Virus record (IMG/VR): IMGVR_UViG_3300046170_000155 | Coordinates: 1 to 56,438 of that record | Source of the DNA: a virus | Taxonomy: Duplodnaviria; Caudoviricetes | Direction: 5' to 3' (one strand) | Length of the DNA: 56,438 nucleotides | In this document: positions 1 through 47,602 of the stretch, piece by piece | How positions within the stretch are numbered: the stretch's first letter is position 1 | Layout: every line of letters starts with the position of its first letter | Translations under genes and position numbers: made by a program | Notes under the pieces: model-generated | The model's input: the letters and a program-made list of their open reading frames with translations, nothing else | What the model was told of the DNA's origin: nothing | Databases searched by the model: none

Positions 1-120
1 CAGACACCTATCCGAGAGTGGAAGACAGGTGCGAGATACAAAGGAGAGAAATAACCAGAGGCTCCGTGTCCATACAGAACCTCCGAGTATTTAGACAAAG
101 TTTGGTTGGAAACTTTATCT
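1..120 (-). ncRNA. Candidate small structured RNA (three hairpins, may extend beyond window start)
   Basis: Inverted repeats 5-31, 58-83 and 93-120; five A.C mismatches on + become G.U pairs on -. Begins ~7 nt downstream of a minus-strand -10 box. No ORF. Confidence 0.55.
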
Positions 121-126
121 TCTTCA

Positions 127-155
127 AGATTAACAGAAATGGTAGATACATACAA
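127..155 (-). promoter_or_regulatory. Leftward sigma70-type promoter
   Basis: Minus strand reads TTGTAT-17 nt-TAATCT with extended TG (tgtTAATCT). Confidence 0.6.
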
Positions 156-184
156 TTTTATAAAAGTTTGTTTTTATAAAATTG
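153..184. repeat. Perfect 13-bp inverted repeat between divergent promoters
   Basis: CAATTTTATAAAA (153-165) and TTTTATAAAATTG (172-184), 6-nt spacer. Confidence 0.9.
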
Positions 185-210
185 ACATAGGACAGATATC
201 TCTCTAGTGT
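182..210 (+). promoter_or_regulatory. Rightward sigma70-type promoter
   Basis: TTGACA (182-187), 17 nt, TAGTGT (205-210). Confidence 0.65.
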
Positions 211-216
211 GTTTAA

Positions 217-395
217 TTACAAACAGTTCAAGATACTGGCTCTCAAAATATCTTGTCCGATTAAAACATCTGTGAGCGGTCTAGCCAGCCCGTGGGTCGT
301 CCGGTAAGGGACATCCCTCGGTATATTTAAATTTTGGTTGGGCGGGACCGCACAGGGTTAGCTCTACCAATACAAAAAGTTGGGGGGCAGGGGCA
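217..395 (+). ncRNA. Candidate ~180-nt structured RNA
   Basis: GC-rich non-coding island. Hairpin 229-255, long bulged stem 270-290/336-355 enclosing hairpin 291-320, 3' hairpin 361-388. Confidence 0.5.
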
Positions 396-435
396 ATAAA
401 AAAAAATATTCAAAGTTGGGTGCTACTATAAAAAA

Positions 436-627
436 ATGACTTTAGATTATATACAAAATGGAATGAGATTTAAAGTAAACGGGGAACAGATAACTTACAT
501 CAAGAGTAAAAAAATAATCGACACTTGGACTCAGCCAAATCTAAACCCAAAAGTTCTTGAACGATATGTAATCGACAGAATGATTTCTTTAGCTTATCTA
601 TACAAAGAGGAACTAATTCGACTATAA
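436..627 (+). CDS. Hypothetical protein
   Basis: 63-aa ORF, ATG 6 nt after TGcTACTAT (leaderless arrangement). Confidence 0.55.
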   Translation: MTLDYIQNGMRFKVNGEQITYIKSKKIIDTWTQPNLNPKVLERYVIDRMISLAYLYKEELIRL

Positions 628-744: not shown

Positions 745-1134
745 TTGAGTGTTAGATGGGAACCAGAAAACGAAACTTACGAGGAATTTAAAAAACGAAG
801 AAGTGATAGTTTTGGAATTTCGGGAATGGGGCAGAAAAAACGAGAAGGCACCGGTAAGAAGAATCTTTCAGAGCTTCGGGAGAAAGCTTTACAAAGAGCT
901 CACTACACATGTGAGTGGCCGGATTGCAATTCTAAAAAATGGCTAGAGATGGCGCATTTAAAAGCAAAGGGTATGGGTGGAGCAAACAGAAACATATCTG
1001 ATGACCCAATGAATGTTTGCATGCTTTGTAAACATCATCATGACATCTTTGACGGCAGACAACAAGTTGGTTCTCAAAGAGAATATACTGCACTACTCAA
1101 AGGATTTCTTGTATTACAATGGAGAATGAAATGA
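745..1134 (+). CDS. HNH endonuclease (terminase-adjacent)
   Basis: CEWPDC...EMAHLK..GMGG...MNVCMLCKHHHD; RBS AAGGAG before TTG; position resembles HK97 gp74. Confidence 0.85.
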   Translation: MSVRWEPENETYEEFKKRRSDSFGISGMGQKKREGTGKKNLSELREKALQRAHYTCEWPDCNSKKWLEMAHLKAKGMGGANRNISDDPMNVCMLCKHHHDIFDGRQQVGSQREYTALLKGFLVLQWRMK

Positions 1135-1412
1135 GTAAAGTTTATGAAGAGCTGAAGGAGTTCAATCCTAAAGCAATGATAATTGAAGATTTTGAAGAGG
1201 CCTATCTTGGTTTTTCAACTGATGGCAAAGCAATCTATGATTTCTACACAATGTTAGATTTAGTTATTGATGGTATCTATGAAGATGCTCCAGAACAACT
1301 AACAGAAGATGAGGCTTATGGCGAAGCCTACGCACATCTTGACTGTAATGTTATTGGCGTTCAAAAAGGTCAATACAGTCCAATCATTATGTATAAAGAA
1401 ATCTATGACTAA
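1131..1412 (+). CDS. Hypothetical acidic protein
   Basis: ORF coupled by ATGA overlap to the HNH gene and overlapping the terminase start. Confidence 0.7.
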   Translation: MSKVYEELKEFNPKAMIIEDFEEAYLGFSTDGKAIYDFYTMLDLVIDGIYEDAPEQLTEDEAYGEAYAHLDCNVIGVQKGQYSPIIMYKEIYD

Positions 1413-2637
1413 CAAGTATGTTCCTAAGTTACCTCCGTTACACGAGGGACAACTCAAAGTAGCTAAATCAGAAGCGCGTTGGAAAATACTATGTGCTGGT
1501 AGACGATTTGGTAAAACAAGACTTGGTGTCCAATTATGTATGGAAGTTGCTCTTAGGGGCGGAAGAGCTTGGTGGGTAGCACCTACTTTTTCTATTGCTA
1601 GAGTTGGTTGGCGTGATATCGCTGCAAGTGCAAAATCATTTCCTAGAGAAATAGAACCAACAGTATCTTTAGCTAATATGCAAATTGATTTAGCTAACGG
1701 AGGCTCTATCGCAGTTCGTTCTGCTGATAATCCACAAAGACTTCGTGGAGAGGGTCTTGACTACTTAGTTATGGACGAGGCTGCATTCGTAAAACCAGAA
1801 GTATGGGCAGAAGTTCTCAGACCTACACTTACAGAGCGTAAAGGTTCTGCTTTATTTATTTCAACACCTATTGGTAGAGATAACTGGTTTTTTGATTTAT
1901 GGGAAAATGCAGACGATGCAGAGAACTGGGAACGATTTAGATTTTCTACTACTGACAATCCTATGATTGACCCCGAAGAAGTAGAGTCTGCTAGAAAAGA
2001 AGTCGGCTCTATAGTTTTTGCACAAGAGTACTTAGCAGAGTTCGTTGACGCAGGTCAAGGTATGTTAAAGCCGGAGTGGATGAATTATTATATTATTGCT
2101 CCAGACGCAGCAGGTAATCTTAAATGTATTGTTGATGGTTCAGAATACTACTTAGATGCCCTACCTAAATACGGAGTTGTTGATTTAGCTACTACTACAA
2201 ATAAAGATTCAGATTACACAGTTATAACAAGTTTTGCACAAACGCCAGATAATAAGCTTTTAATAATAGACATGGTACGACAGAAAATGGAAGGTCCAGA
2301 CATCATACCTGCAATAAAACGAGCAATTCACAAAAATAAGTTACAATATGTAGGTATAGAACGCCAAGGTTTTCAAACCACGATAATCCAGATGGCGCAA
2401 CGAGCTGGTATTCGAGTTAGAAATCTTAAGACGGATAAAGATAAAGTTACAAGAGCTTTACCCCTAGCTGCAAGAATGGAAGCGGGAGAAGTATTTTTAC
2501 TAAGAGATACTCACTGGCTACCAGAAGTAGAGAGAGAAATAATGACTTTCCCAGCAGGTGCTCATGATGATATTATCGACACTTTGTCGTATGGTGTTCA
2601 ACTACTACAAGATAAAAAGAGCTGGAGCGCATATTAA
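1405..2637 (+). CDS. terL: Terminase large subunit
   Basis: Q-motif LHEGQ, Walker A AGRRFGKT, Walker B YLVMDEAA, coupling motif ISTP, nuclease VDLA...HDDIID; likely start ATG 1405. Confidence 0.97.
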   Translation: MTNKYVPKLPPLHEGQLKVAKSEARWKILCAGRRFGKTRLGVQLCMEVALRGGRAWWVAPTFSIARVGWRDIAASAKSFPREIEPTVSLANMQIDLANGGSIAVRSADNPQRLRGEGLDYLVMDEAAFVKPEVWAEVLRPTLTERKGSALFISTPIGRDNWFFDLWENADDAENWERFRFSTTDNPMIDPEEVESARKEVGSIVFAQEYLAEFVDAGQGMLKPEWMNYYIIAPDAAGNLKCIVDGSEYYLDALPKYGVVDLATTTNKDSDYTVITSFAQTPDNKLLIIDMVRQKMEGPDIIPAIKRAIHKNKLQYVGIERQGFQTTIIQMAQRAGIRVRNLKTDKDKVTRALPLAARMEAGEVFLLRDTHWLPEVEREIMTFPAGAHDDIIDTLSYGVQLLQDKKSWSAY

Positions 2638-15616: not shown

Positions 15617-18600
15617 ATGAATCAAGATTTAAGAGTAACTTACGAATTAGTACAAACTAAAGTACAAAACAAAGCAGCTAAACAGACTGAAAAGTCTATG
15701 AAGAAGTTAACAACTCAAGCTGCACATACAAACGCTATGGTTTCTGGTGCTGCTGGTGCAATGGCTGGTGCTCTTGCCGCAGTAGGTGGAGCAATGTTCT
15801 TAACAGTAGGTGCTGCTTCTAAATTTGAAGATTCATTTGCTGGTATTAGAAAAACTGTAGATGCAACCGAAGCACAATTTAGTACACTAGCACTTCAAGT
15901 AAGACAACTAGCGCAAGATATACCAGTTGCTGTAACTCAGTTAAATCAAATTGGTGAACTTGGTGGTCAGTTAGGTGTAGGAGTTGAGAACCTAGAAGAA
16001 TTTATTGAAGTTATTGCACAGGTAGGTGTTGCAACAAGACTGTCAACAGAATCAGCAGCACTATCATTAGCACGACTTGACCAGATATTTGGATTACAAG
16101 GTAAAAGTTTCGATAGATTAGCTTCTTCATTAGTTGACTTAGGTAACAACTTCGCAGCTCTGGAAGATGAGATACTTTCTACTGCATTGAGGCTCGCAGC
16201 AGCAGGTAAAGTTGCTGGTGCTACAGCAGCAGATGTTTTAGGTATTGCAACAGCACTTCAAGCAGTCGGTGTTCAGTCACAAGCTGGTGGTACAGCTATG
16301 GCTCGTGTATTCCAACAAATTCAAATTGCAGTTGCTACAGGTGGTAGACAGTTAGAAGTATTTGCTGAGACTACAGGCTTAACAACAAAAGAATTTCAAG
16401 ACTTAGCTAAAGTAGACCCAGCTTCAGCTCTTAACTTATTCGTTACATCATTAGCTTCTGCTTCTAAAGCAGGTACAAATGTTATTGAAGTTCTTGACCA
16501 ATTAGGTCTTAAACAACAGAGAACAATCAGAGCGTTACTTGCTGTGGGTGAAGCAGAAGGACTATTAACAGATACTCTTGCAACTGCTAATAGTGCTTTT
16601 GAAGCAAACATAGCATTAACTACTGAAGCAGAAAAACGATTCGAGACATTTAAATCAGAAACAAAACTTTTGATGAATGAGCTTACGGAATTAAGAATAC
16701 AAATAGGTAATGAATTACTACCTACTGCAAAAGCTCTTGTTACCACATTGTCTGCTCTAATTGGAGGTTTCCAAAATACAAGTGAAACATCTGAAGGTGT
16801 AGGAACAAGTGTAAAAGTCTTGTTTGGAATTATTGTTTCTATGACAGCAGCAACTGCTGCACTTGGAGCGGCAACTAAAACTTACAACGCTATTGCATTA
16901 GCTAACGGTATTACTGTTGAGGACTTAGGTAAAAGAATAAAAAGAAATGCTAAAAATATGAGTAGGTCTACTAAAACAGCAAAAGCTTTACAAAAAACAA
17001 TGGTTGGCTTAAGATTTTCAATGATTGGATTAGGAGTCGCTCTTGCTGCAATAACTGTTGCATATACTATATTTACCAGAAGACAAGAAGCTGCTAGAAG
17101 AGCTTCAGAAAGTTTTTTAGCAAATAGAGCAGCTGTTGCAAGCATAACAGAAAAAGTAGCAGATAAAGAAAAGGAACTACAAGACTTAATAAATTCAGAA
17201 GATATGTCGGAAGCAAGATTAGATTTACTGAGAGCAGAACTCGATAAACTTAGGGAAATAGAAGAGCAGATAAAGAAAAAATCTATGATAGATTTCTTTA
17301 AACAAGCAGGGATAGATGGAGAATCTGCTGAAGAAGCACAAAAATCATTAGAAGATGTTGGCGGTGCTATTACTGATTTTTATAATTCTGGTTTAGGAGA
17401 GGACATCAAAGTTAGTGTCGCTGGTGCTGGATTGGAAGCTTTTCAGTTTAACACAGCAAACGAAGCTGCATCAGAGTTAAATGATGGTTTAAAAGGTGTA
17501 GGTTTATCTTTAGAAGAATTATCAACCTTAACACCAGACCAGTTATTAGATACTTTAGGATTACTAGAGGCTAAGGGTGTAGATGCGTTCAAACTTTATT
17601 CAAAAACAATAGAGCCAATTGTTAGAACTAATAGACATTTAAATGCTGGTGCATTGGAACTCAATGAAACTCAAGATGCACAATTTGAAACTTTAAGAAG
17701 AAACGCAGCAGGATTAGAAATTATTCAAAAAGCTCTTGTAGAAACAGATGTAAGTGAAAAAGCATTAAAAGATACTATACAAGAAAATGTAGACGCTTAT
17801 AACGAATTAGATACTAGACAAGACGAAGTAGCCATATCTTTGACAGATGTTCTTGACGGAACTTTAAGTTATGTTGATTTATTAAAAGCATTAGATGGAG
17901 AGCAAGAAAATTCAGTAGACTCTGCTCAACAATTAGCAGAAGCTACATTTGCCCTATCAGACCAAGTAACTGATAATATAAATAAATTCAGAGATTTAAA
18001 CTCAGTGCTTCAAGACTTCGGAAGAATAGCACCAATGAATTTAAACCAAATGTTAACTGGAATGGAAAAAGCTGATGAAAGAGCAGATTTCCTAAGAACA
18101 ACAGTTATAAGTCTTGCTAAATCTGGATTTGTTCCTTTATCTAAAGCTTTAACTGATTTACCTTTACAGGAAAGTATTGGATTAGCTTTAACCTTAACAG
18201 AAGAATTGTCAAAGTTAAAAGAATTAGAAAAATTAAATATTGGAAATGAAGAAGATACCCCAGAATTAATAGCACAAAGAGACATTATTGCTGACATTCA
18301 AAATATGTTAACCAGAGATAATCCAGAGTTAAGAAGCTTAACTTTTAATGACGAACAGTTGAAAACTTTTATAAATGAACAAGAAAGATTAATTACAAAT
18401 ACAGAATATATTGACCAAGTTAATAATAATCTTACAGTCCAAGCTGAAGGTCAATTAGAGTTAGAAAGACAACAAGCAGAAGCAGCTTTACAAATATTTA
18501 ACATTGCAAGACAAGAAGAAGAAACTAAAGAAAGAATAGCAGACCTTCAAGAAGAAATGGTTGAAATGACTGCTGATATTGTAGCTAATGGTTTTGTTAT

Positions 18601-45619: not shown

Positions 45620-45897
45620 TGGGTAGAAGTATAAGTAACGGAAGAGGAGCTATAAGGTCAAAGCAAGTTATTGCTCAAAGTAACAATGCTTACACTAGAA
45701 ATAACACAATATCCGCTGTAGACCCAGATAGAACAGTTTTATATCAAGCTGCAACATCTACTAGTTTCCAAGGTGGACAAAGAAGAATACATGCAGCACT
45801 TACTAGTTCTACTAATGTACAAAGCTCTGGTGATGGTTATGCTCAACCAACAGGTGGAACAGCATTTAACTGGACTGAAATTATTGAATATAACTAG
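45619..45897 (+). CDS. Small beta protein, MGR paralog 4
   Basis: IRSKQ...TISAVDPDRT...AALTSSTNV...EIIEYN. Confidence 0.75.
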   Translation: MGRSISNGRGAIRSKQVIAQSNNAYTRNNTISAVDPDRTVLYQAATSTSFQGGQRRIHAALTSSTNVQSSGDGYAQPTGGTAFNWTEIIEYN

Positions 45898-46879
45898 ATA
45901 AACCTAGTTTTTTATACAATCTATTAAAACCTTCTTTAGAATAAAAATTACTAGGCTCTCTTATTACATGTTTATTGTTTATTAAATAATTAGTTGCTAT
46001 ATCGTTAGCTTGTTTCCAAAACTCAGAATTAAAAGGAACTCTAGACACATAGTGTAACATCAAGACCTCTAAGGCCTCTTTAATATAGTCATTGTAAAGA
46101 AAAAGTGCATGGTCTTTTTTTATAGTCTTATTCATAATGTCTTGACTTAAATCAAGTAATCTCAATGCTCCAGATAAAGAAGTAGCATCAAAAGGTTCTA
46201 TAAAGAAAGCATTAAGACCTAGGTGTAGATAATTATCTTGAAATGGGTCTTTTTTGTAGTAGCTGTTAAAGTCCATGGCATGAAAGTAATCTTGCTTAAA
46301 TACCTTAAAATAATCTTTAATCTCTTCTGTTGAAGTGATATTTTTATTGTAAACATAATACATGTAAATATAGTTATAAGTAGGTATTATTTGAACCCAC
46401 CCATGTTCTTCGGCAACTAAATGTGTATAAGTTCTCTTAGATTTATTAGGTATGCGTATCCCAATTGCAGCATTTACAGGAACTTTTATAATATTATATG
46501 AATTATCTACGACAGGTTTTTTTGTTTGTATTGTGTAATCTATATCTTTAGTTTCTTTTATGTCTAAGTTTTTATAAATATAATTGTTAAAAGACCAAGA
46601 ATCAAAGTGCATAGCTACATACGGAGCTGTAAAATTTGAGTAAAAGTCATTACAACCAAAGTTTGTTTTTCTAACACCAGTTTTTACTATGGCGTTAAAA
46701 TTGGGAAAATCTTTATATTCTATATCAATAGAATCTTTTAAGAACGGGATGAGGTCTAATGTAGATGACATAGGTAAGGTAAAGTAATCATCTTGTCTGT
46801 TCCACTTTAAAGGGTTTTCTATATACTTTAAAGCAGCTAAATGTGCAGAAATTCCGTTTCCAATAATTTCAATTTTCAT
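45881..46879 (-). CDS. Flavin-dependent tryptophan-halogenase-like protein (compact, diverged)
   Basis: MKIEIIGNGISA (Rossmann), AIVKTGV (catalytic Lys region), AMHFD, GWVQIIP (WxWxIP-like), GL.AFFIEPFDATS, LHY...SEFWK. Confidence 0.75.
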   Translation of the reverse strand: MKIEIIGNGISAHLAALKYIENPLKWNRQDDYFTLPMSSTLDLIPFLKDSIDIEYKDFPNFNAIVKTGVRKTNFGCNDFYSNFTAPYVAMHFDSWSFNNYIYKNLDIKETKDIDYTIQTKKPVVDNSYNIIKVPVNAAIGIRIPNKSKRTYTHLVAEEHGWVQIIPTYNYIYMYYVYNKNITSTEEIKDYFKVFKQDYFHAMDFNSYYKKDPFQDNYLHLGLNAFFIEPFDATSLSGALRLLDLSQDIMNKTIKKDHALFLYNDYIKEALEVLMLHYVSRVPFNSEFWKQANDIATNYLINNKHVIREPSNFYSKEGFNRLYKKLGLSSYIQ

Positions 46880-46900
46880 ATTATGTATTATACTCCTAGT
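46880..46900. promoter_or_regulatory. Overlapping bidirectional -10 boxes (leaderless divergent promoter)
   Basis: 21-nt gap ATTATGTATTATACTCCTAGT: TATACT on + and TATAAT on -, each 6-7 nt before a start codon. Confidence 0.7.
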
Positions 46901-47602
46901 ATGAAAAAAATAATATTTACTACAGAAAAAACTGGTTTTGCAGATATAAAGTTTACACAACCACAACCATCTAAAAACTTTATACCCTCTTGGTTTACTA
47001 ATATGCCTATGAACTTACCTTTACCAAACAATCATAACTTTGTATCAAAACTTATTCCAAACTTTAAAGGTGCTAGACATTGCCCTAGTTTTGTAGAAGT
47101 ATTTAGAGAAGGCTATGTTTTAGTAGCACCTTGTGACATACACATGTTTTTTCAAGATGGAGAGTTTTTCATGAATCCATCTAATGATGAGTTTATAGTT
47201 AGAACACACGCAAAAGAACAGTTTATGGACTATATACCAAAAGATAGTGGAATAAGAGCTACTGTAAATATTAATACGGGGTGGTTTGGAATTACTCCAA
47301 AAGGTTACGGACTTAGATATCTACCTCTAATGTATGACTTTAATAAAGAATGGTCAGCTAATTATGGTGTGGTTCATACTGATAAGCTACACGAATTATC
47401 AGTTCAGTTATTTTATACATCAGATAAAGATGAGATACTTATAAAACAAGGTGAGCCTCTTTGCTATATAATTCCTTACAAGAGAGAAACCTTTAATTGG
47501 ACAATAACTTCTATAACTGAAAAATTAAGGAAAAAAATAAGAACAGGTCACTATAAAGTAGTAAACAAATTTAAGTCTGGCTATGCTAGAAATGAATCTT
47601 AA
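46901..47602 (+). CDS. Uncharacterised enzyme-like protein, paralog 3
   Basis: PQPS..FIPSWF..M; RHCPSF....GYVL.AP.D; W...TPKGY; GVVHTD; IKQGEPL..IIPYKRE. Confidence 0.6.
   Translation: MKKIIFTTEKTGFADIKFTQPQPSKNFIPSWFTNMPMNLPLPNNHNFVSKLIPNFKGARHCPSFVEVFREGYVLVAPCDIHMFFQDGEFFMNPSNDEFIVRTHAKEQFMDYIPKDSGIRATVNINTGWFGITPKGYGLRYLPLMYDFNKEWSANYGVVHTDKLHELSVQLFYTSDKDEILIKQGEPLCYIIPYKRETFNWTITSITEKLRKKIRTGHYKVVNKFKSGYARNES

Follow-up and report, generated by a model that had tools for sequence, protein, structure and literature searches.

Genes and Features at the Locus

The DNA analyzed here, which we call the window, is an entire IMG/VR virus record of 56,438 bp from a marine phage, classed as linear and estimated to be 97% complete. 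Nearly all long ORFs of the record lie on the plus strand, and positions 1–435 are non-coding. The features of the left end of the window, including a structured element on the minus strand and a divergently oriented leader RNA that precedes the first genes, are listed in Table 1.

Table 1. Positions of genes and predicted elements at the left end of the window.
Feature	Position	Strand	Details
Inner border of the inverted repeat (R)	1–3		Same outside sequence found next to the window start and next to the window end, the latter inverted
HP3	4–32 (pairs 32–23/13–4)	−	10 bp, loop UCCACUCUC, without a U-run
Linker	33–48	−	Unpaired, CU-rich, contains CUCUCCUUU (48–40); plus strand reads AAAGGAGAG (40–48)
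HP2	49–92 (core 86–74/67–55)	−	13-bp G+C-rich core, loop AUGGAC, from the MFE
HP1	93–120 (pairs 120–110/103–93)	−	11 bp, loop CCAACC, from the MFE
Extended −10, TGT-TAATCT	127–135	−	TAATCT at 132–127, TG at 135–134
−35-like hexamer TTGTAT	150–155	−	Read from sequence; TTGnnn in relatives is TTGTGT, TTGCAA or TTGCAT
Divergent promoter TTGACA-17-TAGTGT	182–210	+	Both hexamers conserved in relatives
Pseudoknotted leader RNA	227–314 (region 182–435)	+	Upstream of the 63-aa gene, HNH and TerL
63-aa ORF	436–627	+	First gene of the record
HNH endonuclease	745–1134	+	PF13391 and several PHROG families
TerL	1309–2637	+	Followed by the portal gene

The TerL protein is <30% identical to those of cultured phages, with Pelagibacter phages among the top matches listed, and a blastn search of cultured phage records with window 1–440 returned no match. 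Neither relatives of TerL nor a degenerate 40-nt pattern of HP2 were found in the 185,579 species genomes searched, so these searches give no lead to a host or a prophage. A search for tRNA and tmRNA genes likewise found none. The only long minus-strand ORF of the record with a family match is a 361-aa tryptophan-halogenase-like ORF at 45881–46966 (PF04820, E 1e-11). At 421–438, TGC-TACTAT lies six bases 5′ of the 63-aa gene's ATG, as would suit leaderless initiation; a GUUGGGUGCUA box upstream of it is conserved in many relatives.

A Strand-Specific Structure on the Minus Strand

An earlier note on this DNA, made from the sequence, had proposed that the minus strand of the first 120 nt encodes a small RNA with three consecutive hairpins. 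The minus strand of 1–125 has an MFE of −44.1 kcal/mol (z −5.96), which none of 200 shuffles equaled; the plus strand of the same stretch reaches −25.1 kcal/mol (z +0.13), and 109 of 200 shuffles were as good. When the whole record was scanned on both strands in 125-nt segments with a step of 20 (5632 folds), the minus-strand element ranked as the fourth most stable fold and the best on its strand, the most stable of all being plus strand 261–385. Three adjacent hairpins are present in both the MFE and the centroid. The MFE thus bears out the hairpins and their places, as well as the three loops and the unpaired linker that the earlier note had described, except that HP2 is longer than proposed: its core is extended by five A-U pairs (92–88/53–49), with UUAUUUCUCU following on the 3′ side. 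The structure was also said to be strand-specific by virtue of five G.U pairs; the specificity stands, with G.U accounting for 8 of the 39 pairs rather than five.

Close relatives, which we refer to as type 1, comprise the window, five viral contigs, and three metagenome contigs, for a total of nine sequences, seven of them distinct. In the stems of this set, 99.6% of cells are paired. Thirty-two of the 39 pairs are invariant, six have changes on one side, one is broken, and none has changed on both sides. All six one-sided changes retain pairing through G-C, G.U, and A-U steps, and on the plus strand they would be A.C mismatches. By hairpin, HP1 has eight invariant pairs, two with one-sided changes that still pair, and the broken one, which closes the loop in one variant; HP2 has 15 invariant pairs of 18, the other three having one-sided changes that still pair; and HP3 has nine invariant pairs and one G.U to A-U change. 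Variable columns are less frequent in stems (8/78) than among unpaired positions (16/47; Fisher p 0.0019). Comparison of the type-1 alignment with shuffles did not separate the structure from chance; the seven distinct sequences are too alike. Covariation among homologs, which the earlier note had put forward as a check, therefore gave a mixed answer, with pairing retained wherever one side changed and no double changes. The most divergent type-1 pair, L005/L084, has GUAACUCAA in place of UCCACUCUC in loop 3 and CCCCUCUGU in place of CUCUCCUUU in the linker, together with a 7-nt insertion there; in L008, the linker tract is CUCUCCUCU. The three-hairpin structure is real, strand-specific, and under constraint.

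The earlier note had also allowed that sequence upstream of the record might reveal the region to be coding. In L004, a contig 98% identical to the window, the minus-strand ORF at 3–155 stops 7 nt past window position 1. The completed ORF has 53 aa and a TTG start inside the −35 hexamer, and the 7-nt linker insertion of L005/L084 breaks it. We rejected this 53-aa ORF and a 47-aa ORF as genes, as the overlapping ORF is not conserved. On sequence grounds, the minus-strand element is non-coding.

Promoter, Transcript Ends, and RNA Libraries

The promoter that had been proposed for the element, TTGTAT-17-TAATCT, is present with the stated 17-nt spacer, and its key bases are conserved. Its match to consensus is weak, at 3/6 for each hexamer (6/12 in all), and a consensus scan did not list it; within the family, the promoter of the window's allele is the weakest. 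TAATCT is identical in all nine type-1 sequences. L005 and L084 keep the TTG of the −35 hexamer and TAATCT, and their spacer has diverged in sequence yet remains 17 nt long; the TG of the extended −10 is missing from both. The position of the promoter predicts a transcript start at ~119–121.

In a scan of the non-coding stretch for terminators, HP2 was the only terminator-like site that lies downstream of the promoter on the minus strand. Its tail, TTATTTCTCT, is interrupted; in a variant present in RNA run X3, the tail becomes UUAUUUUU, an improved U-tail. HP2 would be the likeliest terminator of a minus-strand RNA.

In one search, parts of 1–440 were found in RNA libraries from three runs (X1–X3) belonging to two studies. 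The evidence consists of unstranded Logan assembly contigs, which carry no strand, ends, or level, and in which uncovered parts are uninformative. A 151-nt unitig of run X3, an oligo-dT library, spans window −14 to 137 at depth 2, and further contigs cover 178–360 and 339–451. These contigs attest to presence in RNA libraries, not to a transcript; the 151-nt unitig could equally come from DNA carry-over or from plus-strand TerS read-through.

A Variable Slot in Distant Relatives

Thirty-two further loci match the window only from ~200 or ~275 onward. The sequence to the left of these points is unrelated to that of the window and has the same minus-strand layout: an extended −10, then one or two hairpins, and, after a short single-stranded segment, a terminal hairpin, which in most distant relatives is followed by a U-run. 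The predicted RNAs are ~45–95 nt long. A strict extended −10 pattern occurs at the same relative place and on the same strand in 18 of 23 lineage representatives, the exceptions being L017, L036, L052, L072, and L084. Unrelated bodies occupy the slot in relatives with TerL proteins ~84–94% identical.

The terminal hairpin was compared across 13 lineages. Four of its ten pairs have changes on both sides, pairing holds in 99.2% of cells, and none of 500 shuffles reached its covariation score; its 15-nt loop is almost invariant. In L054, L029, L036, L074, and L037, the terminal hairpin is preceded by YCCUCCUUUGUG, and our own alignment suggests that HP3 and the CUCCUUUGU before it correspond to the terminal hairpin of the relatives and this L054-type motif. 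CCAACC, the loop of HP1, recurs in an exposed position in two unrelated alleles, in the hairpin loop of the L016 type and at the predicted 5′ end of the L072 type. Because relatives carry different units with the same layout, place, and strand, the locus appears to be a slot of exchangeable small transcription units, and we read the window's element as one allele of this putative small-RNA slot, back-to-back with the promoter of the packaging operon. A SET-domain gene (PF00856, E 1e-9) lies between the small-RNA unit and the inverted repeat described below in L036 (4608–4913, minus strand) and likewise in L037; in L036, by our own reading, TGn-TATACT lies a few bases before its ATG.

The Divergent Leader RNA and a Possible Link to the Putative Small RNA

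The plus-strand leader has a P1 hairpin (227–235/249–257), whose loop CUGGCU (236–241) pairs with AGCCAG (284–289), and a second hairpin at 300–314. Double-sided changes occur in 12 of 18 pairs among 21 distinct relatives, four of them among the six pseudoknot pairs. Pairing is retained in 97.4% of cells overall and in 100% of those in the pseudoknot, as opposed to 23–38% in slid controls, and none of 500 shuffles reaches the observed value. Rfam has no match to this RNA. The leader is a stronger structured-RNA candidate than the minus-strand element, as judged by its much stronger covariation.

The leader P1 loop, CUGGCUUUCAGAA, has a complement (8 + 5 bp) in the terminal loop of the L025, L054, and L017 types, an invariant 15-nt sequence, UUCUGUUAAAGCCAG. 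Small variants of this pairing differ in their effect: by our own reading, the change in L042 is compensatory, L017 has a wobble, and L029 and L037 have mismatches. The window's allele lacks that terminal loop and offers only CCAACCAAA opposite UUUGGUUGG at 332–340. For each of 16 sequences, the window and 15 relatives, the best duplex between small RNA and leader was compared with 100 shuffles, and none was better than these (z −1.28 to +1.42). We therefore raise a link between the two RNAs only as a hypothesis. One form of it, which we regard as unlikely, is that the slot holds interchangeable trans-acting RNAs that dock on the divergent pseudoknotted leader and control the packaging/structural operon, i.e., a phage kissing-loop switch. 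The invariant terminal loop of most relatives (AAAGCCAG...) would then compete with AGCCAG for the P1 loop CUGGCU and open the pseudoknot, and the window's allele would be a replacement with another seed, the loop CCAACC(AAA), facing UUUGGUUGG at 332–340 or a GUUGGG box before the first gene. The candidate partners in such kissing-loop docking in the relatives would be AAAGCCAG and CUGGCUUU.

An Inverted Repeat at the Edges of the Record

Contigs L003 and L004 are 97% identical to the window over several kb and 98–99.8% identical over 1–440. They extend left of position 1 through ~320 nt of non-coding sequence to a small terminase gene on the plus strand (L004:3913–4374; phrog_4102, E 1.6e-32) and then to minus-strand ORFs. 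Circular closure, with the end of the record joined to its start, was rejected, since both contigs continue left with sequence that is absent from the record. A contig of RNA run X2 aligns to L003 993–1119 and continues into the last bases of the window in reverse complement; the last 24 bases of the window occur in no other viral contig. In relatives, right-hand contigs end in inverted, identical copies of the first 66, 77, or 127 nt of left-hand contigs (pairs L074/L086, L059/L090, and L016/L096). As these junctions indicate, one and the same sequence adjoins the record at either end, in opposite orientations, and 3 nt separate the three-hairpin element from the border of this repeat. Contig ends are scattered at 0, 38, 52, 66, 77, 103, and 127 nt, a pattern that looks like assembler k-mer overlaps into the repeat and not like one physical end. 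The 97% completeness estimate is evidently too high, as the record leaves out the small terminase gene and a further 7.9 kb or more (in L084).

In relatives, the right-end repeat forms the 3′ part of a complete gene, whose product is a small cysteine-rich protein (~45 aa) with the pattern CPVC...GLYC...CP...QK...CCEGG that matches a C4 zinc finger weakly and below threshold. Complete copies (L086:14491–14637, L090:14681–14803, and L096:15077–15202) are confined to the right end of the long unique segment, and the copy beside the small-RNA slot is inverted and lacks a start (e.g., in L059). The window's lineage has only a degenerate, non-coding remnant of the gene. In L109, the right end and the cysteine-rich gene are followed by the small terminase gene in inverted orientation; in ~25 contigs, the small terminase gene lies before the window start in forward orientation. 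In more distant relatives, the cysteine-rich gene is directly upstream of TerL. No recombinase able to flip the repeat-bounded segment was found among the 10 window proteins scanned or the ORFs of L004, and no second repeat copy was found in the first 36 kb of the 47.6-kb relative G001.

Two other sequences in relatives are of note. At L004:4600–4692, to the left of window position 1, and in the homologous parts of relatives, the repeat contains TTGTGA/TCACAA half-sites with a spacing of 1 or 8 nt and a CCCCCGGGGG palindrome; the half-sites and the palindrome may be protein-binding or cos-related. At L106:15892–16110, the first 70 nt of G001 recur as an exact inverted copy (15892–15961), and a 20-nt unit, GAAAATCAATGCTAATTTTT, is present in two exact copies and a third near-copy at a switch in gene orientation, an arrangement that looks origin- or partition-like.

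A Probable Small RNA Gene and Its Alternatives

We consider that window 155–4 on the minus strand has a somewhat better than even chance of being a small non-coding RNA gene of the phage, working by the steps and with the type of target set out here. We favor this interpretation because of the z-score of the fold and its rank (4/5632), the retention of pairing in one-sided changes, the slower change of the stems, the promoter, and the conservation of the slot. A sigma-70-type extended −10 promoter (155–127) would start transcription near 120. The RNA would fold HP1 and HP2 and mostly end at the U-rich tail after HP2, giving a length of ~70–75 nt; read-through would add the CU-rich linker and HP3, for a length of ~120 nt, and would stop at the border of the inverted repeat. 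Pairing with a target would involve exposed bases of the loops or the linker, CCAACC for example, and that target would more likely be the divergent leader of the phage itself, or some other specific mRNA, than ribosome-binding sites (RBSs) in general. We infer the transcript, its ends, and any target from the features described above. The element most likely represents an undescribed family of phage small RNA. Of the earlier proposal, one part is supported, a strand-specific, non-coding, promoter-preceded structure that looks like a small RNA gene, in a slot that is kept in relatives; the part that had it targeting RBSs found no support.

The element might instead act in cis on leftward transcription, as a 5′ leader or attenuator with hairpins that pause, terminate, or antiterminate RNA polymerase before minus-strand genes. 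L004 does have seven minus-strand ORFs further to the left, and in L036 and L037, the SET-domain gene follows the terminal hairpin on the same strand, the hairpin there being without a U-run. However, that gene has, by our own reading, its own TGn-TATACT element just upstream of the ATG, and most alleles end in a strong hairpin with a U-run. In the window's lineage, moreover, the next 1.2 kb leftward consist of the repeat remnant, non-coding sequence, and the oppositely oriented small terminase gene. We judge attenuation to be quite unlikely.

An alternative that we think very unlikely is the one suggested in the earlier note, a global anti-Shine-Dalgarno RNA whose C-rich loops and CUCUCCUUU tract pair with AAAGGAGAG-like sites, favoring genes that lack a Shine-Dalgarno sequence. 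The CUCUCCUUU tract is indeed unpaired in the MFE, and the YCCUCCUUUGUG found before the terminal hairpin in five relatives is a related motif. A GGAG/GAGG core at −18 to −5 precedes only 27 of 72 plus-strand ORF starts in a crude gene call, although this compares with a background of 5.5%. The premise that many genes of this phage are leaderless proved weak, as an extended −10 is positioned for leaderless initiation at only three of the 72 crude gene starts. Several observations weigh against the idea as a whole. The tract is not kept, being CCCCUCUGU in L005/L084 and CUCUCCUCU in L008, and the CU-rich motif is missing from most alleles. Of the loops, the third is not conserved and the first two are not of anti-Shine-Dalgarno sequence. 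The tract lies 3′ of HP2, the only terminator-like hairpin; if HP2 does terminate transcription, the main RNA does not include the tract. The single occurrence of AAAGGAGAG in the record is the complement of the element itself, and the start sites of the phage have nothing beyond a generic AAGGAG. Nothing that we found singles out RBSs as targets, and a literature search for phage-encoded anti-Shine-Dalgarno small RNAs found nothing relevant.

The anti-Shine-Dalgarno proposal had drawn on a likeness to the cuckoo RNAs of Alphaproteobacteria (CcsR/RSs0680, SmelC397/NfeR1 type). According to PMC4615179, members of this family have two to four adjacent hairpins with loops of 9–27 nt and, as the family's one conserved feature, CCUCCUCCC in every loop, and their exposed, pyrimidine-rich bases are proposed to have an anti-Shine-Dalgarno action. 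The window's element shares the number of adjacent hairpins, with three, and the exposed pyrimidine-rich bases, and differs in its loops, none of which contains CCUCCUCCC and which are 6, 6, and 9 nt long. No Rfam family fits either: Rfam 15 has no match at gathering score anywhere in the record, and the only hits were chance matches to a snoRNA (E 2.2) in 1–500 and to a miRNA (E 3.9) in L025 1–600. We therefore reject membership in the family as defined in PMC4615179, and the likeness is not supported.

We give little credence to a tiny protein gene with a structured mRNA. A 21-codon minus-strand ORF starts at an AUG in the HP2 loop (72–70), six bases downstream of GGAGG, and stops at 9–7, placing Shine-Dalgarno sequence and start codon within HP2, an arrangement known from some small toxin mRNAs. 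The sequence does show the GGAGG-N6-AUG spacing, every variant begins with AUG or GUG, and by a hand count on the alignments, five of ~9 substitutions inside the ORF are synonymous. Nonetheless, the 7-nt insertion of L005/L084 stops the ORF after 14 codons, the CU-rich motif common to the L054 type is in a different reading frame there, and the matching frame in L059 has no start codon. The stretch at window 8–70 has no Pfam match, and a conserved small ORF, as expected of a type I toxin-like mRNA, was not found.

Equally improbable is a DNA-level element marking the border of the inverted repeat or of the packaging region (a recombination, cos, or terminase-binding site), with any RNA incidental. 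In its favor, HP3 is only 3 nt from the border, at least 12 independent contigs break within ~125 nt of it, and the element is flanked by the small terminase gene on one side and HNH/TerL on the other. Against it, eight G.U pairs and the retention of pairing on one strand only misfit a double-stranded DNA site, and the contig breaks, by our own interpretation, look like assembler overlaps.

Comparison with Known Systems

Phages lambda and P22 encode small RNAs, OOP and Sar, that have their own promoter and terminator and are read against the neighboring operon; both overlap and act on a defined gene (cII and ant, respectively). Like them, the window's putative RNA has a short predicted transcript and a promoter of the host type, would end in a U-rich tail after a hairpin, and runs against all of the neighboring genes. 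Unlike OOP and Sar, it overlaps no coding sequence and has only a candidate target. ColE1 RNA I/RNA II and R1 CopA/CopT are antisense controls that act through kissing loops. The complementarity of UUCUGUUAAAGCCAG in the L025, L054, and L017 types to CUGGCUUUCAGAA, in a P1 loop that also forms the pseudoknot, is reminiscent of these systems; here, however, the two RNAs would come from separate, non-overlapping DNA, and the window's allele is without that loop. Lastly, the put RNA of HK022 is a promoter-proximal antiterminator with two hairpins. The window's element similarly has stable hairpins immediately 3′ of an early-type promoter and differs in that no operon follows in the window's lineage.

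Implications

For annotation, the record is cut at the inverted repeat and is without its small terminase gene. Few small RNAs, to our knowledge, have been described from uncultured marine phages. If our interpretation is correct, these phages have a fixed genomic slot in which related phages swap small RNAs beside the control region of the packaging genes. The small-RNA candidate and the strongly covarying leader would then be a testable pair for RNA-based control of late genes.
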